A stretch of 33,809 nucleotides of DNA, from contig DATGZA010000048.1 of the NCBI GenBank assembly GCA_035297365.1, forward strand, positions 1 through 33,809, read 5' to 3'. The notes beneath the pieces were generated by a model. It was not told where the DNA came from, made no database searches, and saw only the letters and a program-made list of their open reading frames with translations. Numbering within the stretch: position 1 is the first letter of the stretch; each line of letters begins with the position of its first letter. Origin of the DNA: Nitrososphaeraceae archaeon. GTDB lineage: Archaea; Thermoproteota; Nitrososphaeria; Nitrososphaerales; Nitrososphaeraceae. Shown one piece after another: positions 4,067-21,686 of this stretch. Made by a program: the position numbers and the translations under genes.

Positions 4067-4699
4067 AATTCATAAAAACAAGAAGCAGGTTTGACTTTCA
4101 TCTTATTATGATTAGATTTTAGTATTTATTTTTTTATTAACTTGTTAATAGTCAATAATATAGACAAAGAGCAAATAAACTAACAGTTTCTAAATTGAAA
4201 TGATTCATAAAAAAAACTAAATATACTTTAGACTACATAGCATGAGAATATCACAGAATCATTATTCTGTCATACCGAGCGGGTCAATACCCATCAATTT
4301 TTATTCCACTACCAACATCTTTTTTCTTACCAAATTACATATTAATAAAACAAGATTTTGGAAAAGAAAAGCGATTACCCTCTTTTTCATTCATAATAAA
4401 TTGAATGTAACAAAAAGAAAGTATCGAGTATTTTCATAATGGTAAGAACTGTGTTAATTTAAGATTAATTCACCTCATTTTTTTAAAAGGGATAATAAAA
4501 TAATTTTTCTTAGATGTCATATCATCATTGTACATGAAAATAAAGAATTATATCCAGTTATGTCCATGAAATAGGTCACCTTTATTTTGCATACATGATC
4601 ACTAGTCATCAAAATTCTATATTCTGTCGTGACTCATTGTAAGGATCACTTGATCTTATCAGGAGTCAATCCTATTTGATGTTACAAGGTTAGAATTAA

Positions 4700-5030
4700 A
4701 ACGATAGCTTTTTAAACAGTATTATTGCTTTGATTCATGAAAATCCTTTCTGGATTATCTGAAACAGATACAGAAGGTTTCCAAAATGTTACCTATACTG
4801 GATAAAGCAAAAGAACATTACAAATCAAAAGAAGTACTGGAATATTTCGATGAATACAAACAGGATCTGATTCCAGTATATTTTCCAAATGGGTCTCCAG
4901 AGTTTATGGTACTGGAACGGATATGAAGTATATCCAAAAAAGATCTTCTTGTCCTACAGAATTATTTATCCTTCACAGATTGGATAATTAAAATATCTAG
5001 ATATTATAGAAAAAAAAAGATCCAATCTGT
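4700..5030 (+). mobile_element. IS630-family transposase remnant (pseudogene)
   Basis: From 4795: ILDKAKEHYKSKEVLEYFDEYKQDLIPVYFPNGSPEFMVLERI*SISKKDLLVL, matching the DDE_3 pattern LDxAxxH..PxxSPExxxxExxW with TGA at the Trp position (4924). Frameshifted upstream pieces SFLDYLKQI / FPKCYL. Confidence 0.75.
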
Positions 5031-5092
5031 TTTCAAGAATACCTCATCTGAGGTGAGAAGCATATTAAGCTTAATTGCTATAATATCTAGTT

Positions 5093-5290
5093 TCATACGT
5101 ATAGATTTAGTTCGGTTATGATTGTAGATACCGTTTGCAAGTTATATTTCTCTTCCTCTATGTAAGAACAACAGTAATATTGAATATTTTTGACATTTTC
5201 GTTTTGTGCCAGTACGCTAGACACTGGTATCGCAAGCATTGCAATAACCATTCCTGAAATCAGGAAAACCAATGGGTATTTTTTTTCCAT
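5093..5290 (-). CDS. Short signal-peptide-bearing ORF, probably a truncated exported-protein gene
   Basis: From ATG 5290: MEKKYPLVFLISGMVIAMLAIPVSSVLA-Q is a typical signal peptide followed by under 40 residues; it lies between IS remnants. Confidence 0.45.
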   Translation of the reverse strand: MEKKYPLVFLISGMVIAMLAIPVSSVLAQNENVKNIQYYCCSYIEEEKYNLQTVSTIITELNLYV

Positions 5291-5499
5291 ATTTATTTCT
5301 GTAATTATATACTGAATTCTTATTTTTAAAGATATTGATAAATAGACTGACACCCTTAAAAGAAGATATTTTATAGTGCTAACTAGCCATATCCTAGCTT
5401 AGATTATAATAAAATTTAAGAAAATCTATATTATTACCTTATTAAGCATACACAACATGTTTAGTTCTATATTTTGTTGTTCCGAATATAGATATTAAT

Positions 5500-6170
5500 C
5501 AAATTCAAGGGAAATAAAAAACATTCAACATTTATTGTAATAGAATTTGTATTTGTTCTACAAGAAATCAAAGGTACTAGTAGTATTTAGAGATGAGAAA
5601 TGGAATCGTTTCTGTTTGTAATTTGATTCAGGAATTTGGTTCATATCAAATATATTGTAAAAGAAAAAGAGTATCGCATTTATTATAGATGAAACTCCTA
5701 TTCAGATTGGAAAACAATATTACTACCTGTTATGGATTTATGATGAACCAGTATTCATTATATGCTTAATATTCTTATTTTATATGATAAAAACATGCTT
5801 GTTGATGAAAATTAATTTGATCTGGTTGAGACGTGTGTAACATATTGTCTATTAGGAGGGTGCTAGTAAATGATATTCACAGAAATTTAATTTTGAACAA
5901 CTAAATATAGACAAAATTCTGCAGTGGAAAGGTGATCAATTGATATTTATGCATTATATAAATAAGAGAAACGAAATTTTGATCATCAGATCATTAATAA
6001 ATAACAGAGTATACCATTAACATATAACAGAGATATGATCTATCACAAGTATACAATTATACATGTATACAATTGGATCAAAATATCCATGTACAGGTAA
6101 GATACTAAAATAAAAAACAACATTTCATTCCTCAAAAGAGATGAATTATCCTAAAATTTACAGGAACGCT
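5500..6170 (+). mobile_element. IS6-family transposase remnant (pseudogene)
   Basis: Frameshifted pieces LVVFRDEK / VSVCNLIQEFGSYQIYCKRKRVS / AFIIDETPIQIGKQYYYLLWIYDEPV (IS6 DET motif) and C-terminal HVYNWI. Confidence 0.75.
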
Positions 6171-6450
6171 ATGAACTAATAGAGAAATTTATTGGCAAAT
6201 ATATTATATTTGTATTAAATTATTTATTAACATACTCTTTTGAATTATCGAAAATTCCCTCTACTAAAAATTACATAGTTTTAGAAGCATTCCTTAGTAT
6301 TTAATTAGTATTACAACAAAATAGGGAAATTTTAAAATATCTTATAGCATTTTCTCCAATTATATAGAGGATAGATTGATAAATTCAGTATCCATTATAT
6401 TTTGACAATGGAATTAATTCTGGCAGCCTGAATTATTTCTAGGAAACTAA

Positions 6451-6476
6451 AATATTTTTCGGCGCCGAAAAATATT
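6451..6476. repeat. Perfect 26-bp palindrome, copy 1 of the TTTTTCGGCGCCGAAAAA motif
   Basis: aatatttttcggc|gccgaaaaatatt is its own reverse complement. Confidence 0.9.
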
Positions 6477-6485
6477 CACAATTAT

Positions 6486-6533
6486 ATTTCAGATATCATA
6501 TCTGGTCTTGTGAATTACAGAATAATGAAGAAT
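6486..6533 (+). mobile_element. C-terminal fragment of an IS5/ISL2-like transposase
   Basis: Translates to ISDIISGLVNYRIMKN, resembling the C-terminus of this family and the end (LDLVNYMII) of the adjacent minus-strand remnant. Confidence 0.55.
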
Positions 6534-6777
6534 AGTGTTTTACAGTAATTTGATATATCAGGATTAAGAATAAGATATAGCGCTAGTGTAATTGCGCAAT
6601 AGATCTATTTTATATTTATATTTGACATAACTGACACGGTCTATCACTAACTCTCCAGCTAGTCATTATATAACTTCATTAGACGTCTTCCGTAATTGAA
6701 CAAGTTTTACTTTCTACTGTTATTTTCATCTTTTTTGTATTCTTACTATTATTATGACAGTTTATTGCTATTCCTCC

Positions 6778-7380
6778 TGATAATCATGTAATTCACAAGA
6801 TCAAGTACAATTTCTGTTCCTGTATCTTAGCCATTAAACAGAATTTCGTTATCCTGCAGATGATATGTTCTACTATTGTCATCTGTTTACTCTGTTTTCT
6901 ATTGGTAAGATCAAAATTGTATTTTTTCTTTACTGGTAATGCTACTTTCAGATTGGGAAATTTTTTTTTATTCGTTGGTATCCAAGATCAAAATTGTGTT
7001 CTACTTGTTGTAGTGTTATTTGATGTTCATCGTTGTAAAAGGCATAGTCATGCTGTATTGACTAATGATTCTATGTATGTGTCTTATATCTCCGAACACG
7101 TTGCTCTGGTCAGGATCGAACAGAAATCGTGAAGGTGTATTTGTAATGGAAAATCTGTAGTACACCAAAAGTACTAGAAATCTTTCTCTTACTTTCAGTT
7201 CGAAATGATTCCTGCACCTACTCTTCTTGTTCTGTGATTTCTTTTACATAGACGTTTTATTTCGTATTGTAGATATCTGGATTCTATTTCCTTGTAAATT
7301 AAATCAATTTCAGATAATTCGAGACCCGTTAATCACCTGAAGAATTCTGATTTTCTTGATAAACGAGTGTAATTTAACAA
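6778..7380 (-). mobile_element. IS5/ISL2-like (HTH_Tnp_4 + DDE_Tnp_4) transposase remnant, internally deleted
   Basis: Minus strand: LLNYTRLSRKSEFFR*LTGLELSEID..RRVGAG / FELKVRERFLVLLVYYR..FLFDPDQSNV, then FDLGYQRIKKNFP..LPVKKK..IVEHIICRI. Contains stops, frameshifts and a missing central part. Confidence 0.8.
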
Positions 7381-7549
7381 ATCTATGAGTAATCATGTTT
7401 GAGAAGAGCGATGCAGCTGCAAGCTATCTAATCATGCAAGAGATCTAATTATGAATATTGCGTAAGAATATCATAATTACAAAAATTGGTCTAAGAAGCA
7501 GTCAAAAAACTTTAAAAGTTAATGGAGAATTAAATATTATATTGAAATA

Positions 7550-8944
7550 ATGAGTACAAATAATGACCTAAAATATGAAGATCAAAAGCAACACCAAATT
7601 TTCATTAGTTATGCACATGATGACTCAAATGCGGCTAACCGCCTTTTTAATGATCTGAAAGAGTTTGAAAAAGAATTTAAATTAAAATTTTGGTTAGATA
7701 AAGACAGTCTTTTACCTGGTCAAAATTGGTCAGAAGTTATACAAAATGTTATTAAAGAAAGTAAATATTTTATTTTGCTATTATCTAAAAATGCGATTGA
7801 AAAAAATACATATGTACAAGAAGAATTAAGAATGGCCCTAGAAAAGGCTGAAAACCATCAAAAAGCTGAAATTTATATCATACCCATACGTTTAGATGAT
7901 TGTCAAATATCAGAATCGATCCAAAAGCTTCATGTTGTCGATTTATTCCCCGATTGGAAACATGGATTTGAAAAAGTATTATTGGCAATGAAAATTGGAG
8001 CAAAACCTAAAAAATTAACTGACGTTTATTGGGAGAATTTATTAGATGCTATAGATAGAAAAAATTGTATCCCCTTTATTGGAAGCTCGGCCCTTGAATT
8101 TTTTAATCAAGTGGATGATAATGCTTTTCTTACCATCGACGAATTAGCAAAGGAATGGGCAGAAAAATATGACTATCCGTTTGAAGCTCCATATGAATTA
8201 CCGAAAGTAGCCCAATATGTAGCAATAAATGAATTAGGTAACGAGATGGAAGCTAAGCAGAATGTCAGTACCAGATTTAGAAGAATGAAACCACCTAATT
8301 TTTTATCAAATAAATTTAATAAATCTCCACATGCAATTCTTGCCGAACTAAATTTACCTATTTACATCACAACAAATTATGATTTTTTTATGGAAGAGGC
8401 ATTAAAAAGTCAAGAAAAGAAACCGGTCAGTGGATTGTGTAGATGGAACGATGAATTGAAAAACTCAATTGAAGAGAGAACAGAACAAGATCAATATCGA
8501 CCTACAAAAGATGAACCATTGGTATTTCATTTCCATGGTTGCATAGATTATCCTGAATCATTGGTTTTAACCGAAAGAGATCATTTTGAATTTGTTATTT
8601 ATACCAATAAAGAAAGTGAGAAAGATATGATACCAACATTTTTGAGAAAAGCATTGCCTACTTCAACATTATTATTTATCGGATACAGATTAGATGATAT
8701 CAATTTCCGCTCAATATTTCAAGGGGCTCTCAGCTTCATGTCTAGTGTCCGTAAACGCAGAAATAGCATAGCTGTCATACAAATCCCAGTAGAAAATGAT
8801 TCTGTAAAAAAGGAAAAAGTTACTAAATATTTGGATCGCTACACAAAAGAGATGTTTGAAATAGTAATCTACTGGGGAGAACCAAATGATTTCATCGAAG
8901 AATTACAGACAAGATGGAAAGAATTCAAGGAAAATAAGAGTTAA
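7550..8944 (+). CDS. TIR domain - SIR2-like domain fusion protein (putative NADase effector)
   Basis: TIR: IFISYAHDD, WLDKDSLLPGQNW, FILLLSKN, YVQEEL (putative catalytic Glu). SIR2-like: CIPFIGSSA, YITTNYD, FHFHG, LLFIGYRLDDINF. Confidence 0.9.
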   Translation: MSTNNDLKYEDQKQHQIFISYAHDDSNAANRLFNDLKEFEKEFKLKFWLDKDSLLPGQNWSEVIQNVIKESKYFILLLSKNAIEKNTYVQEELRMALEKAENHQKAEIYIIPIRLDDCQISESIQKLHVVDLFPDWKHGFEKVLLAMKIGAKPKKLTDVYWENLLDAIDRKNCIPFIGSSALEFFNQVDDNAFLTIDELAKEWAEKYDYPFEAPYELPKVAQYVAINELGNEMEAKQNVSTRFRRMKPPNFLSNKFNKSPHAILAELNLPIYITTNYDFFMEEALKSQEKKPVSGLCRWNDELKNSIEERTEQDQYRPTKDEPLVFHFHGCIDYPESLVLTERDHFEFVIYTNKESEKDMIPTFLRKALPTSTLLFIGYRLDDINFRSIFQGALSFMSSVRKRRNSIAVIQIPVENDSVKKEKVTKYLDRYTKEMFEIVIYWGEPNDFIEELQTRWKEFKENKS

Positions 8945-8958
8945 GGGTTGACTGATAT

Positions 8959-11900
8959 ATGGACCGTATAGAGAACTATAAACACACACAAACTTCTAAC
9001 CAATTGAATAACATTGATAAAAAAAATCTCGAACCTTACATTGGTCCTCGTCCATTTTATAGGGATCCAGAGGATCAAAAAAGATTTTTTGGTAGAGATT
9101 ATGAAACTGAGGAAATTGTATCTCTAATTTCTAGCCATAAACTTGTTTTGATATATGCCCAATCTGGAGCTGGAAAGACGTCTATATTTAATGCACAAAT
9201 AATTCCCACTTTAGAACAAGATGGATTTGAGGTCTTACCTGTTATCAGATTAAAATCATCAAATATTATTACTAATTTGGACACGAATGATGTTAAAAAT
9301 ATATGCATTTTTAATAGCTTACAGAGCCTAAGGCCAGATCTTGATCCAAATATACTGAAGGATAAATCACTGACAGAATTCTTACAAGAATATTTTCCAA
9401 TAAAGAAAGATAAAAACGATAGGGAAATGCAACAAATATTAATATATGATCAATTGGAAGAAATCTTTGACATCCTTCCAAGAAATTGGAAAGAACAAAG
9501 AAAGGAGTTCTTTAAGGAAATTGTTCAGGTATTGAATGATATTACTCCGCTTCAAATAGTCTTTATCATTAGAGAGGACTATTTGGCACAATTAGATCCC
9601 TATAGTAATATCCTCCCTGAAAAATTAAGACCTCGTTTTAGACTTGAACGATTACGAGCGGATTCGGCTTTGTTAGCAATAAAAGGTCCACTAAAAAATG
9701 TTCCGAAAGATGTTATTCAAAATTATGAAGGAGACATAGATAAAGATATAAATGAGATAGTTCACGAATTGATGAAAATTCAAATAGAATATTTGCCTGG
9801 GAAAACACAACAAATAGAAGGAGAATTTATAGAACCAATTCAGCTTCAAGTCGTTCTCAAAAGATGGTGGGAAAAAATAACTAATCCTAATAGTAAAATC
9901 GTTAAACAAAATTTAATTTATGTTTCTGATGTAGATACTGCTTTGGAAGAATTCTATGAAGATGCTATAAATGATGTCATTAACAAAGACAAGATAAAAG
10001 AAAGCGAAATTAGAAAATGGTGTGAAGAAAATTTAATTACACAAGCAGGTACTAGAGGTATTGTTCATAAAGGTTTGGATTCAACAGCAGGCCTTAGAAA
10101 TGATTTAATTGATATTTTACAAAAGAAATATTTTATCAAGGAAAATCGTCGAGCAGGTGGGAGATGGTGTGAGTTAACTCATGATAGATTAATCAAACCA
10201 ATAATAACATCCAATCAAAAATGGAGAAAAGAACAGCAAAAAAGAAACAAATTAAACTTTGTAAAAATTTCAATACCTGTGGTAATTTCCATTATTGTGA
10301 TATTTGTAATTTTCGAGAATCTGTATCTAATACCAGTAGTTGAATCATTTTCTGCAGGCTATTTACCCTACATTCTGTCAGTTGATCAAAGTTCAGGATT
10401 AGTATATGTAACCAATCCTACATCGGACACGATCTCAGTTATAAATGGGAAAAAAAATGAACTTGTTAGGACTATAAACGTCACAGATAATCCGCTTGAT
10501 ATAGCTGTGAATTCACAAAATAATATAGTCTATGTTTCTATTCCAAAGAACCAAAGTATATCAGTGATACAGAGAGATAATTTAATGAACGTTTTAAATC
10601 CGTTCATCAAAAAGATACCAATAATTCAAGGAATTTTTGACTACAATATAACTAGCATACCCTTAAATTATTCACCTCTTTCGTTGGGACTCGACTCTGT
10701 TAATTCCAAATTATATGTAAGCTCCCAGAATCTGGTGTCTGTAATTGATACACATACTAATAAAATCAATAAAACTATAAAAATAGGATATACTCCATAC
10801 GAGGTCTCCGTTGATACGCAATCAAATAAAGTATATGTTGCTAATTATAAAGGTGATACTGTATCTGTTATAGATGGAACTAATTACAAGATATTACAAA
10901 ATATTACTGTGGGAAAAAATCCAAGTAGTATAGTATTTAATCCTAATGATAATAAAGTATATGTTGCTAATAGTGGAGATGATACTGTATCTGTTATAGA
11001 TGGAACTAATTACAAGATATTAAAAACAATTACTGTGGGAAAAAATCCAAGTAGCATGATATTTAATCCTAATGATAATAAAGTATATGTTGTTAATAAA
11101 GGAGATAACACAGTATCTGTTATAGATGAAAGAAATAATAATGATATAGCAGTAGCTATTTTCGAAGTTGGAAATAATCCTACGAGTATCAATATCAATG
11201 AAGATCAAAATATACTTTACATAGTTAACAATTTGGACAATAAACTAACAGCAATAGCTATGGGTAACAATTTAATGAAAAATATCATCAGTTTCTTTAA
11301 TATGGGTAACCAACCATCAGAATTTGTTATAAATAAAATTCCTGTTGGTATTCACCCATCAGGAATAGCTACAGATGCTGAAACCACAATGATATATGTG
11401 GCTAATACTGATTCCGATACTGTATCTGTTATAGATGGAACAAAAAATGAAATAAAAGAACAATTTAATGTAGGAGAAAAACCCCGAGACATAGATAGTA
11501 TAAATGATACGATATATGTAACCAATTCTCTTTCTAATACGGTATCAGTTATAGACAGAGAAAAAGGATCTATAAAGGATATTACCACTGAAGGTAAATA
11601 TCCTACGGGTTTGGCAGTTAATGAAAAAACTAATTTAGTATATGTTGCTAATACTGACTCAGATAATGTATCAGTAATAAATGGTACAACAGAGAAAGTT
11701 CAATCCACAATTCAAGTTGGAAATGCTCCAACCAGTATAGCATTTGATAAAAGTAATAATTTGATATATGTAACTAATTATGAAAATGATAACGTATCAG
11801 TAATAAATGGTACAACAGAGAAAGTTCAATCAACAATTCAAGTTGGAAATGGTCCAACCAGTATAGCATTTGATTCTGAAAAGAATTTAGTATACGTAGC

Positions 11901-12261
11901 TAATTATCTTGATGATACTATATCCGTAATAAATGCTACTGATAAGGTGAATTATGGAAATATAAATATTAGTAGAGATTTTCCAGGGAATGGTCCCACA
12001 GCAATAGCCGTTGATTCAAAAAATAATAAAATTTACGTATTAAATGTGTTCAGTGACAATATATCAGTTATAGATACCCGCATCATAACGGATTCATTAC
12101 AAGATAGTAAAACTATTAATGACAATCAGAAATATGTAATGTATGTTATTCCTGCAGGAGATTCTCCAAGTGATATATCGATTAGTTCTGAAAAATTATA
12201 TGTATCCAATCGAGGTAATAATATAGCAGACATATTGAATGTTCCAGTTTCTAATAGGTAA
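8959..12261 (+). CDS. nSTAND1-type STAND NTPase with a single TM helix and a double YVTN beta-propeller
   Basis: PYIGPRPF..FFGRD, Walker A AQSGAGKTS, Walker B ILIYDQLEE, IIREDYL, ELTHDRL; TM ISIPVVISIIVIFVIF (10267-10314); 14 YVTN-type blades. Starts 14 bp after the TIR-SIR2 stop. Confidence 0.9.
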   Translation: MDRIENYKHTQTSNQLNNIDKKNLEPYIGPRPFYRDPEDQKRFFGRDYETEEIVSLISSHKLVLIYAQSGAGKTSIFNAQIIPTLEQDGFEVLPVIRLKSSNIITNLDTNDVKNICIFNSLQSLRPDLDPNILKDKSLTEFLQEYFPIKKDKNDREMQQILIYDQLEEIFDILPRNWKEQRKEFFKEIVQVLNDITPLQIVFIIREDYLAQLDPYSNILPEKLRPRFRLERLRADSALLAIKGPLKNVPKDVIQNYEGDIDKDINEIVHELMKIQIEYLPGKTQQIEGEFIEPIQLQVVLKRWWEKITNPNSKIVKQNLIYVSDVDTALEEFYEDAINDVINKDKIKESEIRKWCEENLITQAGTRGIVHKGLDSTAGLRNDLIDILQKKYFIKENRRAGGRWCELTHDRLIKPIITSNQKWRKEQQKRNKLNFVKISIPVVISIIVIFVIFENLYLIPVVESFSAGYLPYILSVDQSSGLVYVTNPTSDTISVINGKKNELVRTINVTDNPLDIAVNSQNNIVYVSIPKNQSISVIQRDNLMNVLNPFIKKIPIIQGIFDYNITSIPLNYSPLSLGLDSVNSKLYVSSQNLVSVIDTHTNKINKTIKIGYTPYEVSVDTQSNKVYVANYKGDTVSVIDGTNYKILQNITVGKNPSSIVFNPNDNKVYVANSGDDTVSVIDGTNYKILKTITVGKNPSSMIFNPNDNKVYVVNKGDNTVSVIDERNNNDIAVAIFEVGNNPTSININEDQNILYIVNNLDNKLTAIAMGNNLMKNIISFFNMGNQPSEFVINKIPVGIHPSGIATDAETTMIYVANTDSDTVSVIDGTKNEIKEQFNVGEKPRDIDSINDTIYVTNSLSNTVSVIDREKGSIKDITTEGKYPTGLAVNEKTNLVYVANTDSDNVSVINGTTEKVQSTIQVGNAPTSIAFDKSNNLIYVTNYENDNVSVINGTTEKVQSTIQVGNGPTSIAFDSEKNLVYVANYLDDTISVINATDKVNYGNINISRDFPGNGPTAIAVDSKNNKIYVLNVFSDNISVIDTRIITDSLQDSKTINDNQKYVMYVIPAGDSPSDISISSEKLYVSNRGNNIADILNVPVSNR
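10825..11128 (+). repeat. Tandem 126-bp blade repeats (two full, one partial)
   Basis: Units start at 10825, 10951 and 11077; the first two match at 115/126 nt by manual count. Confidence 0.9.
11662..11874 (+). repeat. Second blade duplication, 126-bp period
   Basis: 11662-11748 and 11788-11874 match at 84/87 nt by manual count. Confidence 0.9.
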
Positions 12262-12336
12262 TAACTTTACTATTATAAAAAATGAACTCTAATGTCATGG
12301 AAATAGTTTAATAATATAGATTTCCAGATAAGTATT

Positions 12337-13290
12337 GTGCAATTTATCATAGTGTTAATTATCATTTTCCTATCCTTTGTAATATCATTCGAATCTAGCT
12401 TCATATACGAATCATATGGTGAAAAAGATTTAGTAATAGATGAAAAAGTACATATTACAATATCTAAAGATAATGAAACTCTAATTGTTCCCGCGAAAAT
12501 AGGAATTGATCCAAAGTTATGGAAAGACCATTCATTAGACTATTATAGTTTTGATCCTAATGGTAATCATAATACTTCTCCTTTAAACACAAAAAATTAT
12601 AATGGAACTATTTACATGGAATCAATTTACGATAGAGAGTTTACTTTACAAAATTTTTTAGATGTGTGGGGCTTTGACAAAACTAAAATAAAAAATATTT
12701 TTTGTAGTGAAAAACAATTATGCGATCTTGACTTAACTTTAACTGATGGTCAAAATTTAACATTAGAGCTCAAAAGTGATAAAACTCCAGATAATTTTAC
12801 GAAATATATACATCCAAAAATAACTTTTGAATATCCTTCTCAATGGAAAATAACTAATTCAATATTAGGGAATGAAACATTCTATGATGACTTGATTAAA
12901 GTATTCCCAAAGGAAGCAGAATATATGACTACTCCTTTCTTTTCTATACAAATCAAAAAATTAGATTCGAATATGACTACGTTAGACGAATATTATATGA
13001 ATAATTTACCTGATTTATTACAGGCAGATGAAAATACTTTTCCTCACTTTATACATTATAATAAAACTGAAATCGATGGTAATCTAGCATACCTTATATT
13101 ATTAGATACTACTTTAGTTGCAGAACCTGGTTCATCTGAAAAAGGCAATGAGATTACACAAAAAGAATCTCATATTTGGACCATAAAAGGTGGTTATTTT
13201 TATGATATATCATATAAGGCTTTGAATGGACTTTACAATGACTACTGGTCTATGCAAAAAAAAATCATTAATTCAATAAGAATCCAATAA
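12337..13290 (+). CDS. Exported or membrane-anchored protein with a C-terminal PsbP/Mog1-like domain
   Basis: GTG start; hydrophobic N-terminus; N-domain VPAKIGI..SPLNT..GTIYMES..FTLQNFLDVWG; C-domain FEYPSQWK..TEIDGNLAY..IWTIKGGYFYDISY..KIINSIRI. Confidence 0.75.
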   Translation: MQFIIVLIIIFLSFVISFESSFIYESYGEKDLVIDEKVHITISKDNETLIVPAKIGIDPKLWKDHSLDYYSFDPNGNHNTSPLNTKNYNGTIYMESIYDREFTLQNFLDVWGFDKTKIKNIFCSEKQLCDLDLTLTDGQNLTLELKSDKTPDNFTKYIHPKITFEYPSQWKITNSILGNETFYDDLIKVFPKEAEYMTTPFFSIQIKKLDSNMTTLDEYYMNNLPDLLQADENTFPHFIHYNKTEIDGNLAYLILLDTTLVAEPGSSEKGNEITQKESHIWTIKGGYFYDISYKALNGLYNDYWSMQKKIINSIRIQ

Positions 13291-13581: not shown

Positions 13582-13731
13582 TTACATATGATCCTCTATT
13601 GACAGACCTATATAATTTAAGCATTTATCATATTCTGATTCCAAAAGTTCGTTTTTGAATGCTTCGGTTTCCTTTTTGAGATCGAGATGACACATACCAG
13701 ATGGTACTGATGAAACCAATAATAATGACAT
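13582..13731 (-). pseudogene. Truncated CHAT-like N-terminal fragment (49 aa)
   Basis: MSLLLVSSVPSGMCHLDLKKETEAFKNEL aligns ungapped to ITILFLSANPAATDPLELIKECNIINEKL of the neighbouring CHAT protein (8/29 identical). The ORF stops before any catalytic residue. Confidence 0.45.
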
Positions 13732-13935
13732 TTTTATTAATATTGAATATCAAGCGGTTAATGTTTTTTAAATAAAAAAACAAACACCATGTTTAAGAAA
13801 AAAGGTTTAATTGTGAACGATATATATTGTAACTAGTTCTACAAGTTAACGAAAATTTTATAGTTCATTATGAAAACTATCTATGGTAGTATTTGGTGTA
13901 TTTTTAAAATAATCCTTTAATCATTAAAAATCTAA

Positions 13936-14883
13936 TTATCTGCAGATCTCATCTAATTTTTCAATTATATCCCTGGCAACCACTACGGATTGATTTTCAA
14001 CAATTCTTGCCTTATCGTCATTACCTATTGACGTTAAGTTATTATATTCCCTAACTTTCCCTGATAAATTGATCAATAATAAATTCAAATCATTACTTTT
14101 AACTTCTCCAATTTTCTTCTTATTAATAGGATCTGAAAGAAAATGAAAAATAGGATCTGCGATTGTTTCAAATAATTCTCTAATAGTCATTTTCTGCATT
14201 AAAAGCTTTTGATGATTCTGTTTGAGTCCATCTACTAGGCTACATATATTAGGAGATTCATTTATTTTATCATCCCCAGATGGTTTATCACCACGAGGTA
14301 TGACTATTTTAGATGGATCCATACCATCCTTAACTTTCAGGTCCGGTGTCTTACTTTCTGGTATACCCAATAACTCTAATTGTACTTTTGCAAGTTCAAA
14401 TGCCTCTTTTACACTTTTTCCAAATCCAAGGGAAGAATAAAACGTCGATGCAAACTCTATTGCTGCCTTATCTGAGACAGCATTTGACATTCCGATAACA
14501 CAGTTAACATGTTTAGATATTGCTTTTGCTTGTTTTTCTGAATAACAAGCATTCAAGAAAACTAGATCTATTTTATGTCCTAAAATTTTGAACACATTTG
14601 ATAATGCAGAAGGTGGAACCTCTTCGATTTGACCAGTATTCTCGTTCTTAAATATCAATGAACTATTTGGACTACCATGTCCTGAAAAATGTAATATTTG
14701 AGGATCATAGTTAAGTAATTCTTCAATTAACCACTTGATAGAGATATCGTGTCTTTGTTCTAACTTGAAATCTGCTTTATTTGTGGCAGATCTCAGTTTT
14801 TCATTTATTATGTTACATTCCTTTATTAGCTCTAAAGGATCGGTCGCGGCAGGATTTGCAGAAAGAAATAAAATTGTTATCAT
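13936..14883 (-). CDS. CHAT (caspase HetF-associated) protease with a C-terminal helical adaptor-like domain
   Basis: ILFLSANP, ILHFSGHG (His), VFLNACYS (Cys), VIGMS..AIEFASTFYSSL. ATG at 14883 preferred over the TTG at 14928. Confidence 0.9.
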   Translation of the reverse strand: MITILFLSANPAATDPLELIKECNIINEKLRSATNKADFKLEQRHDISIKWLIEELLNYDPQILHFSGHGSPNSSLIFKNENTGQIEEVPPSALSNVFKILGHKIDLVFLNACYSEKQAKAISKHVNCVIGMSNAVSDKAAIEFASTFYSSLGFGKSVKEAFELAKVQLELLGIPESKTPDLKVKDGMDPSKIVIPRGDKPSGDDKINESPNICSLVDGLKQNHQKLLMQKMTIRELFETIADPIFHFLSDPINKKKIGEVKSNDLNLLLINLSGKVREYNNLTSIGNDDKARIVENQSVVVARDIIEKLDEICR

Positions 14884-15153
14884 AGCAAGTCTCTGCGCTA
14901 GATCTATAAAACCATTTCCTTTTAACAAACTTAAATCTGATGCAATTAAGCAAGATTGATAGTAGTTCTAAATTAAGTGATAGTGAAATGATATGTTTGA
15001 ATGTGAAATACTAAACCAGTGTTGATTACACTTTATTAAGTATCACATATTAAATTATTTATTATTTTATCATAACTGGAAATATTGTTCGTGTATGATT
15101 ATTTATTTATAAAAAGATTTAAAAGACTTACGAACAAGTATCTTTTAATATTT

Positions 15154-17058
15154 TTGTCAACAGATGAAAAATATATAGACATATTTTTAAAGAAAAAACA
15201 GGAATTAAAAGAACTAAACCAAAAATACATTATGGGACTAATTTCAATTGATGAATTCCATAATAAAATCAGCAATTTTCTGATTGATTTTACTGTTAAT
15301 ACAATAAATAAAGAATTTTTTGGCTACTTAAATATCGAATCCCTTAGCAGACAATTAGCAAATATCGCTACACTCTCATCTAATTTAAAAAAGTATAGAG
15401 AATTAACAGATGAAGAGAAGGAAGGACAGATAACAAAAGAACTTTCATTATCGAATTTTCGGATATTAGAAAGGCTTGAAAAATGTAGTGAATATTATAA
15501 ATCAGAGTTTCAGACTTCAGAGCAATCTACTTTAATAACCGAAATCAACACTATTCGGACACAAGCCGTAACTTCTGGTCCATCAGATAAACGCGATTTT
15601 GTACAAGAAAGTATTGGTATAAAAAAAGATAAAACCAGCGATCAAAAATCCACGTTAAATAAACTTTGTTTTGTGGATATGCCTTTTGGTAATAAAAAAG
15701 ATCCTTATACAGGAATCAAAGTAAATTTTGACCAAATATATGAAACTGCTATAAAACCGGCAATAACTGGTGCAAATCTAGAACCGTTGCGAGGAGATGA
15801 AGAAAATAGAGGCGGAATAATTCACCAAGCGATGTTTGCTAGACTTTTGCTATCTGAATATGTTATAGCTGACCTGACCACTGCAAATTCCAATGTATAC
15901 TATGAATTAGGCATTAGACATGCTGCTCGTCCATTTACAACTATCCTATTACATGGAAATTTACATCCTCTTCCATTTGATATTGCCCCAAATAGAACAA
16001 TTATGTATAACATTGAAAAGGATGGAACCATAAGTGAAAAATCCTGCCTTGATTTGAAAGAAGAAATTCTGGCTAGATTGGAGACAATCATTAGAGATGG
16101 AGCAAGATCAGATAGTCCTTTGTTTGAATTGATCAAGAATTACAAAAAAATAGACCTACCTCATGAATTGACAGATACCTTTCAAGATAGAATAAGATTA
16201 GAAAAAAATTTTAATGACCAATTGGAAAGGGCTAAATTACATAAAAATGACAGCGAAAAGGTAAAATCCTTACAGGAAATTAGATCCAGTCTTGGAAATA
16301 TTAAGGATAAAAATGATAACATACTTACAAGTCTCCTGCTTGCGTTTAGATCTGTTAGTGCATGGGAAGACATGATTCAATTATGTGAATCCTTTTCATA
16401 TGATTTAAGAAATTCATACATGATACAACAGCAAGAAGCATTTGCCTTAAACAGAAGAAATAGTGCTAACGACAGGGAAACAGCTATAAAAATTCTTGAG
16501 GAGCTAAGACAGATTTACGGTGACGATCCCGAAACTATGGGTCTACTCGGTAGAATATACAAGGATATGTTCAAAGACGCTAGGAAGAACAACGACCAAT
16601 TTAGTTCACTAGGATTTCTCGAGAAGGCCATAGATACATATACGAGGGGTTTTTACTCGGATCCACGTGACTATTACCCAGGAATAAATGCCGTCACACT
16701 TTTAATCGAAAAAGGTGGCAAGCAATCATATGATAAATCAAAAGAATTGATTACATCAATAAATCTTGCATTAGCTAGGAGAGGAGGACTTGATTCACAT
16801 AATTATTGGGATCTTGCAACAATTCTTGAAATAGCATGTATTGAAAACGATTCGGAGTTGATAGATAGGGTGTTGCCCAAAATTTCTATTTCAGCTAAGG
16901 AGACTTTCATGCCAGAAACAACACGAGACAATATAAAGATGCTAAGATATTCGTTACCTGGACTTTATGAAAAGGAAAAACAGGAATCATTGACTTCTAA
17001 CCTTGACAGGGTAATATCCTTTTTGGATTTTTATCACAAGAAATTGAAGAGCGGATGA
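15154..17058 (+). CDS. Helical N-domain + DRHyd (nucleoside deoxyribosyltransferase-like) + DUF4071/MAP3K TRAFs-binding TPR protein
   Basis: CFVDMPFG..FDQIYETAIKPAI..RGDEE..GIIHQAMFARL..VIADLTTANSNVYYELGIRHA; then AFALNRR, ETMGLLGRIYKD, YYPGINAVTL, YWDLAT. The ORF is open from 15085; TTG 15154 is my preferred start but is uncertain. Confidence 0.88.
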   Translation: MSTDEKYIDIFLKKKQELKELNQKYIMGLISIDEFHNKISNFLIDFTVNTINKEFFGYLNIESLSRQLANIATLSSNLKKYRELTDEEKEGQITKELSLSNFRILERLEKCSEYYKSEFQTSEQSTLITEINTIRTQAVTSGPSDKRDFVQESIGIKKDKTSDQKSTLNKLCFVDMPFGNKKDPYTGIKVNFDQIYETAIKPAITGANLEPLRGDEENRGGIIHQAMFARLLLSEYVIADLTTANSNVYYELGIRHAARPFTTILLHGNLHPLPFDIAPNRTIMYNIEKDGTISEKSCLDLKEEILARLETIIRDGARSDSPLFELIKNYKKIDLPHELTDTFQDRIRLEKNFNDQLERAKLHKNDSEKVKSLQEIRSSLGNIKDKNDNILTSLLLAFRSVSAWEDMIQLCESFSYDLRNSYMIQQQEAFALNRRNSANDRETAIKILEELRQIYGDDPETMGLLGRIYKDMFKDARKNNDQFSSLGFLEKAIDTYTRGFYSDPRDYYPGINAVTLLIEKGGKQSYDKSKELITSINLALARRGGLDSHNYWDLATILEIACIENDSELIDRVLPKISISAKETFMPETTRDNIKMLRYSLPGLYEKEKQESLTSNLDRVISFLDFYHKKLKSG

Positions 17059-17211
17059 AGTAAAAAAGATTTTTACATTTATTTAACATAACATGATTTT
17101 CACTTTTATTATTATTTTGGAACCGTTGGTCAGGTATATATTTTTCATTTTTGGTATAACTATTATAAACCAGATCAAAAAAGATAAATACTATATTTTG
17201 ATAATTTTTTT

Positions 17212-17916
17212 ATGTCTAATGTTAATTGTGATTTCGATGGTGATGGACGTGCTGAGATTTTGGTCACAAGTCCCTGGGGAATAGGAATCCTCAAACTTTC
17301 TGGCAGTACACTAACTGCTCCTATGATGGCACCCAATGGAACAAGGTTTGGTGGTTGGTTGTTAAACACTGCCGATAACTATTTCACCATAGGTGAAGAG
17401 TGTATTAGACTGCATGTAAAAATCCTTACAAATCCAAGTATTAGTATTGAAAACATGATTGTATCCATGCAACTTGCGTATGAATCTGTTGGAATACGTG
17501 TTCATAGAGTAAGTACAGAAAATCTGAATCTACCAAATTTAAACGATGTAGATGTCGGGAATTGTACTCTCGGTTCAGTTACTCAAGAACAAATTGACCT
17601 ATTTGCTAATCGAAATAATGCTGGACCGAATGATGTGGTTGTTTATTTTGTAAGGTCTACAGTACCACCGTTCAACGGTTGTGCTTCTCATCCGGCCGGT
17701 AGACCCGGTGCAGTTGTAGCTAGAGGTGCAACCATTTGGACATTGGCACATGAGGTAGGACACACATTGGGCCTTTTCCATATCAATGATAACAATCGAT
17801 TAATGACTGGAAATGGCACATCCAATATAACTAATCCTCCTCCTGACCTAATTTCACAGGAAGTATTAACTATGAGGAAAAGTAATTTATCTCATAAAAG
17901 CGGAGAGGGATTATAA
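17212..17916 (+). CDS. Metzincin zinc metalloprotease with an N-terminal FG-GAP-like repeat unit
   Basis: DFDGDGRAEILV Ca-binding-type motif; HEVGHTLGLFH followed by the Met-turn RLM; no signal peptide. Confidence 0.85.
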   Translation: MSNVNCDFDGDGRAEILVTSPWGIGILKLSGSTLTAPMMAPNGTRFGGWLLNTADNYFTIGEECIRLHVKILTNPSISIENMIVSMQLAYESVGIRVHRVSTENLNLPNLNDVDVGNCTLGSVTQEQIDLFANRNNAGPNDVVVYFVRSTVPPFNGCASHPAGRPGAVVARGATIWTLAHEVGHTLGLFHINDNNRLMTGNGTSNITNPPPDLISQEVLTMRKSNLSHKSGEGL

Positions 17917-18368
17917 TGTCAGTAACCATGAATGATGTATTAGCATATCTGGAACCAGATGAACCTAGTTATGCACAAGCTGCGAAGCTTGGTCCAGATG
18001 CGCTGCCCTATCTTAAAGAGATTATCGATAAACCAGATGTAATGCTAGCTTCAAAAGCTGCATATCTAGTCAGCTTAATTAAAAGTGATAAATCTATTTC
18101 TATTTTAGAGCACGCAGCACGCAATAAAGAACCAATAGTAAGAATCGCAGTTGCGTCAGGAATTCGTAATATTTCAGAAAGAGATGCAAACATCTTGCTA
18201 GACGAGTTTATAGAAGATAAAGATGTTGGAGTGCGTAAAGTAACGCTTAAATCAGTTGCAAAATTCAAGTCTGATTTAATAGCATCAAAAGTCCAAAAGT
18301 TACAAGAAAGCGATCCAGAACCCTATATTCGTGAATTGGCTTCTAATGTAATAGAGAAAATGAAATAA
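17916..18368 (+). CDS. HEAT-repeat protein
   Basis: LGPDALPYL, EPIVRIAVA, DKDVGVRKVTL, DPEPYIRELA; TAATG overlap with the upstream protease. Confidence 0.85.
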   Translation: MSVTMNDVLAYLEPDEPSYAQAAKLGPDALPYLKEIIDKPDVMLASKAAYLVSLIKSDKSISILEHAARNKEPIVRIAVASGIRNISERDANILLDEFIEDKDVGVRKVTLKSVAKFKSDLIASKVQKLQESDPEPYIRELASNVIEKMK

Positions 18369-18915
18369 CTTTTTTTGAAGTACACCGTGAAGAAATACTG
18401 CCTGAATTTGTAGATTGTATAATAATAAATTGCAACAAGATAGCAAAAACTGATATAATGAATTGTAAATACGGCAGGTAAAAATTTTCTTTATATTACC
18501 TAGACATAGTAACAGGAAAAAGGGAAAAAAATTACTGGTGGAATAAACGAATCGCTATGTAAGAAAGAATAGAATAATGTAAAAAAAATTTGGAGAGTCT
18601 AATAGCAAAGTTGTTTTTGATGAGAGAAACTATCTGTTATGAGGTGGCAGCTAGCATATTGTACGTGGCATATAATGCATGAGTTAATTGGTTGGTATAC
18701 CTCTAATAGATTTTTTCGGCATTGTTCATCTCCGTTGAGATAGCTAGTGATATTATTGTAAAAAAGTAAAAAGAAAAGAAGGGTGGAAAGAAAAATTTAG
18801 TAATATCTACATTCGATACAATTATTTTCACGACAGAGGAAACAAATTATAAGAATTTTACATCATATCTAAAATCTAAATATACTTTTATTTTGCACAT
18901 ACAATTTTTCCTATT

Positions 18916-18935
18916 ATTTTTCGGCGTCGAAAAAT
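18916..18935. repeat. Near-perfect palindrome, copy 3 of the TTTTTCGGCGCCGAAAAA motif
   Basis: atttttcggcgtcgaaaaat, 70 bp upstream of the carboxypeptidase ATG and next to a TATA-like tataaata. Confidence 0.8.
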
Positions 18936-19005
18936 TTGCTATAAATAAATTCCTGTAATTTAAACAATCAAAATACTTATGAATTAGGAATCTAAATAAA
19001 ATTTA

Positions 19006-20373
19006 ATGACAACGAGATTTTTTGTTCAAATTATAGCAAAGAATAAACAGCAATTAATGGATTTACAGAAATTCGAGCTCGACCTATTTCAATCTACAGG
19101 AAAATCCATTGAGGATAAGAAGTTCTCAATTGACGGGTTAATTACATTAGAAGACGTAAATAAATTGGTACAAAATGGCTACAAGGTAATGGTAAAGAAA
19201 GAATCAATGAAGAGAACTCCTGCTATAGATGAAACCATGTCTTTTGAGGAATGGAGCGAAGTAGTCAAAAAAGAGGAAAAGGAAGAAAAGGAAGAGGGTC
19301 TTAGAGAAGCAAAGCCAGAAAAAGCACTCACATTTAAAGGATATTTGACTTCAAAGGGTATACATTCTGCATTACAGTATTTAGCTAAAACATATCCATC
19401 CATAGTACAATTGATATCTCTACCAGAAAAGACATATGAAGGATATATGTCAAAAGCAATAAAAATAGGTGTAAAAAACGCGACTCCCAAAAACGGCATT
19501 CTTTTCTTGGGAGGAGTACATGCGCGCGAAATTCTGAATCCTGACCTTTTGGTAAAACTAACACTAGATTTATGTCAAGCATATTCATCAAATAATGGTC
19601 TGACATATGGCGGAAAATCGTTTACTGCCGAAGATGTAAAACAGATAGTGGATAATCTAGAGCTTTTTGTTTTTCCATTGGTAAATCCCGATGGTAGATC
19701 ATTCGTACAGGCACCCAATGGAGATGTATGGTGGAGAAAGAACCGAAATCCTAATCCCGGTCTCGAACAGAAAGGTGTAGATCTAAACAGAAATTATGAT
19801 TTTCTTTGGCAGAGTGGAATAGGTACAAGCACAAATTCTACTACTGAAATTTATAAAGGGAAAGAACCAGCTTCAGAAAAAGAAACAAAGAATGTTCTCC
19901 ATTTGATAAACAAATACAAAAACATCACCTGTGTATTTGACATTCATTCCTATTCAGAGGTTATTCTCTATCCATGGGGTGACGATGACATCCAGACAGA
20001 AGATCCAGATATGAATTTTGGAAATCCCGATTATGATGGGTCACGCGGTATCCCTGGAGACAGTATTTACAAAGAGTATATCCACAAGAAAGATCTAAAT
20101 TGGTATGAGAGTACAGGTAAAAGGATAAGAAACGCAATTGCAGCAGTACAAGGAACTGTTTATGAAGCTCAGCACAGCATTGGCCTATATCCGACATCCG
20201 GTAGCTGTGATGATTATATATACAGTTTAAGGTACAATGGTGCCAATAGAGAAATAAAGGGCTTTACTATAGAAACAGCTAAATTATTTCAACCTACGTA
20301 CGAAGACGCAATAAAAGTTATGTCTGAAGTATCAGCAGGACTGGTTGAAGTATGTAAAATACACCTTGAATAA
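19006..20373 (+). CDS. M14 zinc carboxypeptidase (carboxypeptidase T-like)
   Basis: GVHARE, NPDG, WRKNR, GVDLNRNY, DIHSYS, YPTSGSCDDY, FTIE; N-terminal pro-like region; no signal peptide; T-rich tract after the stop. Confidence 0.93.
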   Translation: MTTRFFVQIIAKNKQQLMDLQKFELDLFQSTGKSIEDKKFSIDGLITLEDVNKLVQNGYKVMVKKESMKRTPAIDETMSFEEWSEVVKKEEKEEKEEGLREAKPEKALTFKGYLTSKGIHSALQYLAKTYPSIVQLISLPEKTYEGYMSKAIKIGVKNATPKNGILFLGGVHAREILNPDLLVKLTLDLCQAYSSNNGLTYGGKSFTAEDVKQIVDNLELFVFPLVNPDGRSFVQAPNGDVWWRKNRNPNPGLEQKGVDLNRNYDFLWQSGIGTSTNSTTEIYKGKEPASEKETKNVLHLINKYKNITCVFDIHSYSEVILYPWGDDDIQTEDPDMNFGNPDYDGSRGIPGDSIYKEYIHKKDLNWYESTGKRIRNAIAAVQGTVYEAQHSIGLYPTSGSCDDYIYSLRYNGANREIKGFTIETAKLFQPTYEDAIKVMSEVSAGLVEVCKIHLE

Positions 20374-20846
20374 CTTTTTTCTTCTCTTTTTGATTATAAA
20401 ATAGGGAAATATTATGGATTGATTTGAGCTGATATCACAAATAAGGGAAATTACTTTTTTCATGTGATTGTGTATAGTAAATTGAGTACAAAATATTAAA
20501 TTCATTTTATTTTCCTATTATGTTCCAATATTCAAATTGGATTTTTTTTAAATTTAATTCATAAATTTTCCTTGTCTTCAGACATGTTATTAATAATGAT
20601 ATCATAATACAGATGATTTATTGTCGTTCAAACCTGTGATTTGTTCTCTCTTACAGAGCTTTCCTAGTTTTTTGATTAATGATATTGACAATGTGACAGG
20701 GATTTTATACGTATTCAATAATAATTGTGTGATAAGGAATGATAATTATCTGATATTAATAATAATTATTATAATTATCTATTACAATTATCATAGGATA
20801 ATAATATTCGATGTGAACGAGGGAAATACAAATATCAAGTTTGGGT

Positions 20847-21686
20847 TCAGTAAACACGTCTTGGTTGCTTATGAATATAAATTGGAATGGGGATATTCCT
20901 CCTCAACTCATTAGAATTCAGATCCAAAAACATATCTTTATCAAAGTCAAAGGTACTCAGTTCTTTCCTTACTTTTTTTAATAATGAAGTAAATTCATAG
21001 GAATTGTTAAGTGAATCAATCATAATAAATTTCTTGAAGCCATTGTAGGGCACACCTTGCACCGATAGCATTTGATCCAAAATATTTGTGTCCAAATGAA
21101 ATTCAGATCGATGTTTATAAAGATAGGCATTTGCAAAGGATTCCTCTATACAATGAATTGAGTTAAATGAATCTAGATAAAAATCAATATAATATTTATT
21201 GAAAATATTTTTATTGTTTTTGAGTTCAATATTACTTATAAAACATTCCAAGATATAATGAAAAAATCCATGTAAATACAATATTAAAAACGAAGAAGTT
21301 AAAGATTCTTTTTTATTAAAAGGAACATTGTTTTTAAGGTAAGATGAAAGTTTCATCCAGCTAGAAAATCTCAAATGGATACCCCATTTTGTTCTAGGAA
21401 TAAAATGAAATGGCTGATACCACATACAGAAACTCTTTTCAAAAATAAAGTCTCTCTGAATAGCATCAGATCTGGTGCTATTTCTAGAAATATCTTGTAT
21501 AACTGACGAGTTCAATACAGAATCCCATGTTATTTGAATTTTCTCAAAGATTTGATCAGATTCAGAAAAGTACCACTCAGGAGTAATTAATTCAGAAACT
21601 ATGTTTGGTGATTGAATACTGTTAAGATTATTTGTTTTATTCAAACTGTCAATTGAAAAAATTAACTCTTCTAAATCTGAAATCAT
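20847..21686 (-). CDS. Hypothetical zincin-like protein with a degenerate HExxH motif
   Basis: WYQPFHF..WGIHLR..YLHGFFHYILE..IEESFANAY: HxxxH plus a downstream EE helix, with Gly at the catalytic Glu position. Confidence 0.65.
   Translation of the reverse strand: MISDLEELIFSIDSLNKTNNLNSIQSPNIVSELITPEWYFSESDQIFEKIQITWDSVLNSSVIQDISRNSTRSDAIQRDFIFEKSFCMWYQPFHFIPRTKWGIHLRFSSWMKLSSYLKNNVPFNKKESLTSSFLILYLHGFFHYILECFISNIELKNNKNIFNKYYIDFYLDSFNSIHCIEESFANAYLYKHRSEFHLDTNILDQMLSVQGVPYNGFKKFIMIDSLNNSYEFTSLLKKVRKELSTFDFDKDMFLDLNSNELRRNIPIPIYIHKQPRRVY

Follow-up and report, generated by a model that had tools for sequence, protein, structure and literature searches.

Architecture of the P0001 receptor gene

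The window (the whole stretch of DNA analyzed: 33,809 nucleotides of contig DATGZA010000048.1 from Nitrososphaeraceae archaeon assembly GCA_035297365.1, forward strand) was AT-rich (GC about 0.26 to 0.42), and it harbored two adjacent genes that form the subject of this work: P0001, which encoded a putative membrane-spanning receptor composed of an nSTAND1 NTPase, one predicted transmembrane (TM) helix, and two YVTN propellers, and P0002, located directly upstream, which encoded a TIR-SIR2 protein predicted to act as an NADase effector. The nearest named homologues came from Nitrososphaeraceae, Nitrosocosmicus, and Nitrosopolaris. P0001 and its parts were delimited as follows (ORF, open reading frame; aa, amino acids):

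8959..12261, + strand: P0001, nSTAND1-TM-YVTN receptor gene, 1100 aa; an ORF with a 94% identical orthologue in the same context in genome G112
9034..10218, + strand: nSTAND1 NTPase with helical and winged-helix parts, predicted cytoplasmic, aa 26-420; from Pfam PF20703, motifs, and the structural model
10219..10251, + strand: basic juxtamembrane stretch KWRKEQQKRNK, aa 421-431; from the sequence and a family-wide excess of lysine plus arginine (K+R) on this side of the helix
10258..10314, + strand: predicted single TM helix, aa 434-452; Kyte-Doolittle value 2.83, conserved, and lying inside model helix 409-456
10339..11259, + strand: first seven-bladed YVTN propeller, aa 461-767, predicted extracellular; 28 model strands, TIGR02276 and Pfam matches
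11326..12240, + strand: second seven-bladed YVTN propeller, aa 790-1094, predicted extracellular; 28 model strands, pLDDT mostly >90
10825..11128, + strand: tandem 126-bp DNA repeat (one blade), 2.4 copies with 90% matches; from Tandem Repeats Finder and self-shifted blastn matches
11662..11939, + strand: second tandem 126-bp blade repeat, 2.2 copies with 84% matches; from Tandem Repeats Finder

The nSTAND1 domain (PF20703) was matched at residues 26-254 of P0001 (Pfam: E 4e-24, 86.4 bits against a cutoff of 27.1), and residues 1-22 were disordered in the AlphaFold2 model (pLDDT <50); the protein therefore had no room for an N-terminal effector, as the initial annotation, which put the start of the domain about 25 residues from the N-terminus, had stated. 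The full-length model (24-sequence alignment) reached a mean pLDDT of 82.3 with the NTPase region folded, and the cytoplasmic part modeled separately (41-sequence alignment) reached pLDDT 90 and pTM 0.87. As modeled, this part has the STAND fold, comprising an AAA+ core, a helical domain, and a winged helix. Its comparison with solved folds gave two sets of Z scores: (i) PAB2304 (14.9), Orc1/Cdc6 (14.1), NRC2 (12.5), NLRP3 (12.0), and ZAR1 (11.9); and (ii) the Avs chains Avs4 (11.4), Avs5 (11.3 and 10.8), and Avs3 (10.8). Apaf-1 was included among the Foldseek matches. At the sequence level, the STAND part displayed no meaningful match to the sequences of solved structures (best E 0.63 with the single sequence and 0.041 with the 41-sequence profile). 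The residues G70, G72, K73, and S75 (Walker A), D164, Q165, and E167 (Walker B region), and R205 and E206 were invariant in the 41 sequences, and the same Walker and sensor-arginine residues were invariant in the 24 full-length sequences as well.

The C-terminal part of P0001 was matched by the YVTN repeat model TIGR02276 (beta_rpt_yvtn) over nine stretches (NCBIfam: E 4.9e-77, 253.7 bits against a cutoff of 27.85) and, from about residue 480 to 1090, by the Pfam propeller models Lactonase, YNCE, and NHL; 11 strict motifs of the xxTVSVID type were counted. Model strands of at least three residues numbered 28 at 461-767 and 28 at 790-1094, with pLDDT mostly >85, which amounted to 14 four-stranded blades in two seven-bladed propellers, the blade number given in the initial annotation. 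The two 126-bp tandem repeats, with 90% and 84% matches between copies, showed that blades had been duplicated recently.

Predicted TM helix and topology

The topology of P0001 was assessed by Kyte-Doolittle hydropathy, by the K+R bias in the 15 residues on either side of the helix, and by the AlphaFold2 model. Segments of 19 residues with a hydropathy of at least 1.6 occurred only at 430-465, where the peak of 2.83 (434-452) had no other segment near it; KWRKEQQKRNK began at residue 421, before the hydrophobic segment, and the model contained one uninterrupted 48-residue helix (409-456) isolated between two folded parts. The basic stretch followed by one TM helix, as first read from the letters of the DNA, was thus recovered.

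A search of clustered proteins (5.8 billion) gave 1445 matches at E <=1e-3 among 7996 scored candidates, and the 120 homologues listed were examined. All 120 harbored one strong hydrophobic segment shortly after the HDRLI motif that ended the NTPase module, with its position constant and its sequence drifting; in P0019 and P0096, an insert stood between HDRLI and the segment. K+R averaged 6.78 before the helix versus 1.07 after it, and the value before was higher in every one of the 120. The genomic loci described below contained 80 STAND ORFs, 73 of which displayed the helix segment; three of the remaining seven were cut by a contig end, and four were complete. In these 73, K+R averaged 5.44 before versus 2.41 after the helix, with more on the N-terminal side in 68, equal values in 2, and a reversed bias in 3. 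One of the four complete helix-less ORFs (L082:5980-8349) contained, after the NTPase, a GGGYRG stretch that by eye was reminiscent of patatin-like lipases.

The cytoplasmic part alone was also searched exhaustively against 1.84 billion cluster representatives (50%-identity clusters), which yielded 17076 matches at E <=1e-3, 7369 at 1e-10, and 3094 at 1e-30. The top 150 included 127 new sequences: the helix was present in 103 and absent in 23, and one sequence was too short. For 126 relatives, the median position of Walker A was residue 52.

A single-pass membrane protein with its N-terminus inside and its C-terminus outside is the best reading of these data, because the ATPase depends on ATP from the cytoplasm, and one helix leaves the two halves of the protein on opposite sides. 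This is the orientation that had been proposed from the window alone; both the helix and the positive-inside bias proved to be family-wide by the computed criteria, and a segment that does not span the membrane, named in the initial annotation as the finding that would overturn the proposal, was not what the homologues pointed to.

Variety and composition of the ectodomain

Regions following the helix were scanned with Pfam in 68 genomic relatives. The 60 listed displayed various domain profiles: at least 31 carried WD40, at least four TPR, at least three Amidase_2 (peptidoglycan-amidase/PGRP-like), and at least one each YNCE, FGE-sulfatase, PD40, and Peptidase_C39_2; at least 18 had no match. 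The metagenomic homologues carried YVTN, NHL, or TPR after the helix. The initial annotation had described a YVTN sensor in place of WD40 or TPR, and this held for P0001, with relatives bearing WD40, TPR, NHL, or a PGRP-like amidase at the same position. Amidase_2, PD40, and YNCE are types expected outside the cytoplasm, and their presence after the helix supports the predicted topology. Conservation was somewhat lower in the ectodomain than in the NTPase (89% versus 94% in G112 and 73% versus 85% in homologue P0005). Judged from these comparisons, sensor turnover appears to mark the family: ectodomain types have been swapped among relatives, and blades have been duplicated recently.

Eleven other YVTN ORFs were found in the same genome, six of which began with a hydrophobic signal or anchor, in keeping with the predicted external position of the P0001 propellers. 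On contig C2 of G000 (- strand, about 35-2413 and 10692-11630), two ORFs of 1691 and 1194 aa with YVTN repeats had soluble TPR-like N-termini and no signal peptide, and they may be further receptor-like proteins.

P0001 contained 14 N-X-S/T sequons, all past residue 506 and none before the helix, so that the count in the initial annotation was correct; its use as evidence for a glycosylated sensor did not stand, the number being what chance would give. Shuffled ectodomains contained 14.8 +/- 3.3 sequons (probability of the observed number or more, 0.65), and shuffled cytoplasmic parts contained 2.3 (probability of none, 0.08). The 14-to-none pattern was thus due to composition: 13.7% N and 17.4% S+T in the ectodomain versus 6.9% and 8.1% in the cytoplasmic part. 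Across 119 homologues, ectodomain sequons were even rarer than expected (1125 observed versus 1437). Glycosylation of the P0001 ectodomain is possible, and the sequon statistic lends it no support.

The TIR-SIR2 partner P0002

The partner gene and its parts were delimited as follows:

7550..8944, + strand: P0002, TIR-SIR2 partner gene, 464 aa, predicted NADase effector; an ORF with matches to Pfam and to PADLOC ThsA-type SIR2 and TIR models
7598..7978, + strand: TIR domain, aa 17-143, apparently a variable add-on; from Pfam
7997..8941, + strand: SIR2 module, aa about 150-464, the apparent constant partner of the STAND gene; from phmmer alignments of 90 partner ORFs
8945..8958, + strand: 14-nt spacer between the P0002 and P0001 genes; from the sequence, and bridged by RNA-library contigs X16 and X17

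P0002 harbored TIR_2 at residues 17-143 (Pfam: E 1.7e-23, 83.9 bits against a cutoff of 28) and SIR2_2 (PF13289) at 271-417 (E 1.4e-27, 96.9 bits against a cutoff of 24.5), and its stop codon (8942-8944) was followed after 14 nt by the ATG of P0001 at 8959. By phmmer, the 90 partner ORFs aligned to P0002 from about residue 150 to 463, i.e., to the SIR2 module. The SIR2 motifs TTNYD (N276), HxHG (H327, H329, and G330), and GYxLxDxxFR were kept, with N276 shared by 90% or more of the 31 partners aligned. A profile of the partners matched solved SIR2 NADases: 7uxt_B (1.8e-22), KomC (5.6e-17), ThsA (8e-17), and DSR2 (1e-4). The histidine mutated in the deposited KomC(H146N) chain aligned with P0002 H329; the name of this mutant suggests that H146 is catalytic. 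P0002 is accordingly described as a putative NADase, as judged from its motifs and profile matches, and Pfam found in it no SLOG, Macro, or other ligand-sensing domain.

The residue equivalent to H329 was Y or F in the partners of four loci (L012, L017, L027, and L035), three of which carried an N-terminal TIR; the STAND genes next to these three TIR-bearing partners displayed Amidase_2 (PGRP-like) ectodomains. In partners of this kind, SIR2 may be inactive and TIR the working enzyme; P0002 itself retained both SIR2 motifs and TIR. One glutamate (E92), a candidate for the catalytic residue of TIR, was common to the four TIR-bearing partners aligned.

Conservation of the gene pair

One genome per species of GTDB was scanned with the 24-member family alignment: 607 stretches were matched, and 562 were confirmed by tblastn. 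The gene-pair counts rest on the best 80 of these 562 stretches, kept as 78 loci. The loci were mostly bacterial, spanning Chloroflexota (Anaerolineae and others), Acidobacteriota, Verrucomicrobiota (Udaeobacter), and Planctomycetota (Pirellulales and Scalindua), with some from Nitrososphaeraceae and Methanosarcina.

A P0002 homologue (phmmer, E <1e-20) lay directly upstream on the same strand, ending at or overlapping the STAND start, in 77 of the 78 loci; the exception, L079, displayed only a partner fragment (E 5e-8). Within the same archaeal family, the partner was present in every locus whose flank covered the position: (i) TIR-SIR2 in L088, L090, and L095; (ii) SIR2 alone in L091, L093, L094, L096, and L099; and (iii) a split form in L089 and L092. 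The initial annotation had proposed a TIR-SIR2 partner 14 bp upstream and had named homologues unlinked to TIR or SIR2 genes as its refutation. This refutation was not borne out, and the constant part turned out to be SIR2: apart from the window, no more than 4 of the 78 loci displayed a match to the TIR part, namely, L017, L027, and L035 and, in a piece of its own, L009. A Pfam scan of 17 partners gave seven CHAT-SIR2, one SIR2-CHAT, three with EAD7, and six SIR2 alone. Across these loci, the SIR2 module thus appears to behave as the constant partner, with TIR, CHAT, and EAD7 as variable additions.

Two tandem SIR2 genes stood upstream of STAND in L022, L029, L031 to L034, L036, L038, L046, L074, and L086 (Udaeobacter-type loci and some others); the ectodomains there had no Pfam match, and in L036 the contig start truncated the first SIR2 gene. 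In the Chloroflexota loci L054, L056, and L062, STAND-TM genes stood in arrays of two or three. In a quick, midpoint-rooted tree of 41 cytoplasmic parts, which names no donor or direction, P0001 grouped with L009, L010, and L025 (SH-aLRT 100) among mostly Chloroflexota rows.

Genomic context, distribution, and expression

Of 151 genomes in the family, 8 contained the NTPase part; among 21 other genomes of the genus, it was present in 1. In that one, G112 (contig C54), the TIR-SIR2, STAND, and PsbP-like genes occupied the corresponding position, with a DNA identity of 91%. G112 was otherwise collinear with the window and lacked 13599-23793, a 10.2-kb variable insert adjoining the module. The gene pair was flanked by ordinary metabolic genes (esterase, cupin, ferredoxin, and P450), and metagenomes from soils and wetlands in many studies contained near-identical DNA.

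The insert contained a CHAT gene (13936-14928, - strand), a gene (15085-17058, + strand) whose 657-aa product displayed MAP3K_TRAF_bd and TPR-S domains as well as a weak match to a PADLOC TIR-effector model, and genes of the FG-GAP/metallopeptidase, HEAT, M14 carboxypeptidase, and astacin-like types. The insert is a possible second conflict island. Directly downstream of P0001 lay P0003 (12337-13290, 317 aa), whose N-terminus was hydrophobic and whose weak match to PsbP_2 fell below the cutoff. P0003 was considered as a third component of the module, given its place beside the pair in G112, and was rejected, since no homologue was found among the ORFs of the 78 loci; the loci of the archaeal family ended short of its position. 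Upstream of P0002, about 3.5 kb (4067-7549) contained no ORF of 100 aa or more and was collinear with G112 in a block averaging 91% DNA identity; toward its end stood a TATA-like TTTAAAA (about 7511-7517), close to which a joint transcript of the two genes might begin. Rfam gave no match on the whole window.

Nineteen contigs from four RNA libraries of three studies lay on the two genes, and two of them bridged the junction (X16, 8863-9013; X17, 8798-8990), a weak hint of co-transcription. No RNA-library contig lay on 7000-7562 or 11489-12700, an absence of cover that proves nothing.

Functional interpretation

The explanation toward which we lean, with modest confidence, is that P0002 and P0001 constitute a two-gene NLR-like conflict module (for defence or programmed death) that senses outside the cell and acts by NAD+ depletion. 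It starts from what was observed, namely, the domain make-up, the conserved helix with its charge bias, the intact ATPase and SIR2 motifs, and the near-universal pairing, and it adds as predicted elements the topology, the direction of signaling, the trigger, the contact between the two proteins, and the NADase activity. P0001 would be a single-pass receptor with the nSTAND1 ATPase switch in the cytoplasm and the 14-blade YVTN double propeller outside as the ligand-binding part. A surface cue such as a viral particle, damage to the envelope, or a foreign cell would bind the propellers, and binding would release or cluster the receptor, upon which the cytoplasmic NTPase domains would oligomerize in an ATP-dependent manner, as in other STAND proteins; the oligomer would activate the co-encoded TIR-SIR2 protein, and this would destroy NAD+, stopping growth or killing the cell. 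The character of a conflict system is suggested by the likeness of the partner to defence NADases, the CHAT and EAD7 partners, the patchy distribution, and the adjoining variable insert.

Several observations weigh against this explanation. The four complete STAND relatives without the helix (L037, L050, L069, and L082) were still paired with a SIR2 gene, so the pairing is independent of membrane insertion. Among the matches listed, the domains seen most often after the helix, WD40 and TPR, are classically cytoplasmic. Sequon enrichment as a sign of an external glycosylated domain was rejected, the count being the compositional expectation. Neither protein matched a validated defence system as a whole in PADLOC, where P0002 matched single-domain models only and the STAND part gave only a weak mad8 match (E 0.0072; seen in 3 of 41 members). 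The hint of co-transcription is weak because RNA libraries can contain DNA and a contig covering two genes is no proof of one transcript.

The pair could instead be a non-immune transmembrane signaling module that reads an ordinary environmental or envelope signal, in which SIR2/TIR would serve regulation as an NAD-dependent enzyme (deacylase, ADP-ribosyl transferase, or maker of a signal nucleotide). Its position between metabolic genes, the same in a second genome, and the lack of a match to any PADLOC system model would fit such a role; we nevertheless consider it unlikely, since the module is patchy (8 of 151 family genomes), the likeness of the partner family is to the defence NADases ThsA, KomC, and DSR2 and not to protein deacetylases, sensor domains have been exchanged and blades duplicated, and CHAT proteases and EAD7 adaptors, both characteristic of conflict systems, occur as fusions to partners (for the role of EADs, see the available text of PMC7159879).

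Two further explanations concern the helix and what follows it. YVTN repeats are a typical element of surface-layer proteins in archaea, and the helix and propellers might serve only to hold the complex in place at the envelope (e.g., at the surface layer), with an intracellular trigger sensed by the NTPase part or the partner; the four helix-less relatives that keep SIR2, two of which (L037 and L050) run from STAND directly into TPR-like repeats, indicate that a cytoplasmic mode exists. A mere anchor, however, needs neither 14 blades nor swapped PGRP-like amidase or FGE-sulfatase domains, the position after the helix varies most in domain type, and the C-terminal repeats of STAND proteins serve as the ligand sensor (available text of PMC7159879 and PMC13581612), so we regard simple tethering as quite improbable. 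That the hydrophobic segment does not span the membrane at all, and that the whole protein is cytoplasmic like the characterized Avs proteins, we hold to be very improbable: the evidence for spanning consists of hydropathy and charge bias only, and the WD40/TPR sensors of relatives are usually cytoplasmic, but a Kyte-Doolittle value of 2.83 over 19 residues stands far above any other segment, its position is kept while its sequence drifts in all 120 homologues listed, the positive-inside bias is strong and family-wide, and the model isolates a 48-residue helix between two folded parts.

The interpretation first given to the window is thus partly supported: the feature itself is confirmed, the topology and the partner link are backed across the family at the level of predicted proteins, and signaling across the membrane is a proposal. 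As a new archaeal member, P0001 would be of real interest for its mechanism if that mechanism were demonstrated; its value lies there and not in the discovery of the architecture. The family is large, its sensor is predicted to lie across the membrane from the ATPase, and its closest relatives are nearly always paired with an SIR2 NADase gene. If the predicted topology and coupling hold, (i) NLR-like switches would carry signals from outside to inside, (ii) the family would offer natural sensor swaps (YVTN, WD40, TPR, NHL, and PGRP-like) for asking what prokaryotes watch at the surface, and (iii) the archaeal member would add to the picture the ammonia-oxidizing soil archaea, whose defence against viruses is little known.

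Comparison with known systems

The nSTAND1 clade of STAND NTPases in prokaryotic conflict systems was named by Kaur, Iyer, Burroughs, and Aravind (eLife 2021; PMC8195603), and P0001 belongs to the same NTPase family with a score above the Pfam cutoff. The main text of that paper, in its available part, describes fused N-terminal effectors or EADs and FGS sensors and discusses no membrane topology. Its Figure 2 source data 1, in the part available, lists 'nSTAND1+TM' as a string 461 times, with nSTAND1+TM+BetaPropeller and 'TIR+DrHyd -> nSTAND1+TM' among the examples, so that an effector-less membrane-spanning layout with a TIR-bearing upstream gene was already on record, and the novelty implied by the initial annotation did not hold. 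In the same part of this supplement, 'SIR2' occurs eight times and never as a neighbor of an nSTAND1+TM gene, and 'thaumarchaeota', 'Nitrososphaer', and 'YVTN' do not occur; one DrHyd row carries a DUF4062 defline, and the label 'DrHyd' may or may not cover the Pfam domain SIR2_2. An SIR2 gene paired with a membrane-spanning nSTAND1 is not described in the available text of PMC10907252, PMC8195603, PMC13581612, PMC7159879 (where the word SIR2 does not occur), PMC12803255, 10.64898/2025.12.03.692087, or 10.64898/2026.10.19.760177. P0001 is accordingly an archaeal, YVTN-bearing addition to a large family that is catalogued and uncharacterized, the architecture itself having been tabulated in print.

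Avs5 and the other antiviral STANDs (Avs1-4; 9jap, 9nc9, 8dgf, and 8dgc) likewise combine a STAND NTPase, a SIR2 NADase, and a C-terminal repeat sensor. They differ from the present pair in several respects: (i) Avs proteins carry an N-terminal effector fused to the STAND chain, as in 'EfAvs5(SIR2-STAND)', where SIR2 occupies the N-terminus of the same chain, whereas P0001 has none and SIR2 is encoded by a separate upstream gene; (ii) characterized prokaryotic STAND/Avs receptors sense molecules inside the cell, according to the available text of PMC13581612, whereas here a predicted TM helix separates the sensor from the NTPase and, together with the charge bias, argues for an external sensor; and (iii) Avs and other solved STANDs share with P0001 a likeness of fold only, with no sequence-level match. 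Periplasmic CLec sensors have been predicted for some targets of diversity-generating retroelements, one of them a NACHT protein (available text of PMC10907252).

The partner profile matched ThsA, KomC, and DSR2, and the TTNYD and HG motifs were kept in P0002; unlike these proteins, P0002 has no SLOG or Macro domain by Pfam, and its SIR2 is fused to TIR. Having no ligand-sensing domain, P0002 would receive its activation from the STAND partner and not from a signal nucleotide. In Thoeris, the SIR2 effector carries SLOG/Macro as the sensor of a signal produced by TIR, and TIR resides on the separate ThsB, whereas P0002 has TIR and SIR2_2 on one chain, and the PADLOC ThsA matches cover only its SIR2 part. 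With the YVTN propeller proteins (TIGR02276), P0001 shares the repeat family; other YVTN proteins are secreted or anchored without a cytoplasmic NTPase.

By analogy only, P0001 and P0002 resemble the Toll-like receptor pathway of animals, whose receptors likewise consist of an external repeat sensor, one helix, and a cytoplasmic end in TIR chemistry. The pair might be a prokaryotic counterpart of that pathway, in which an NLR-type ATPase reads an external ligand (e.g., an adsorbing virus or a foreign cell) via a swappable ectodomain and signals through the helix to TIR-SIR2, which would destroy NAD+; this proposal is tentative, and we think it possible rather than probable. If it were true, archaea and many soil bacteria would have an immune receptor acting before, or independently of, foreign entry. 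The sensor and the membrane-proximal part display no homology to those of Toll-like receptors; the pair described here would use an ATP-driven STAND switch, and its TIR resides on a separate protein together with SIR2.

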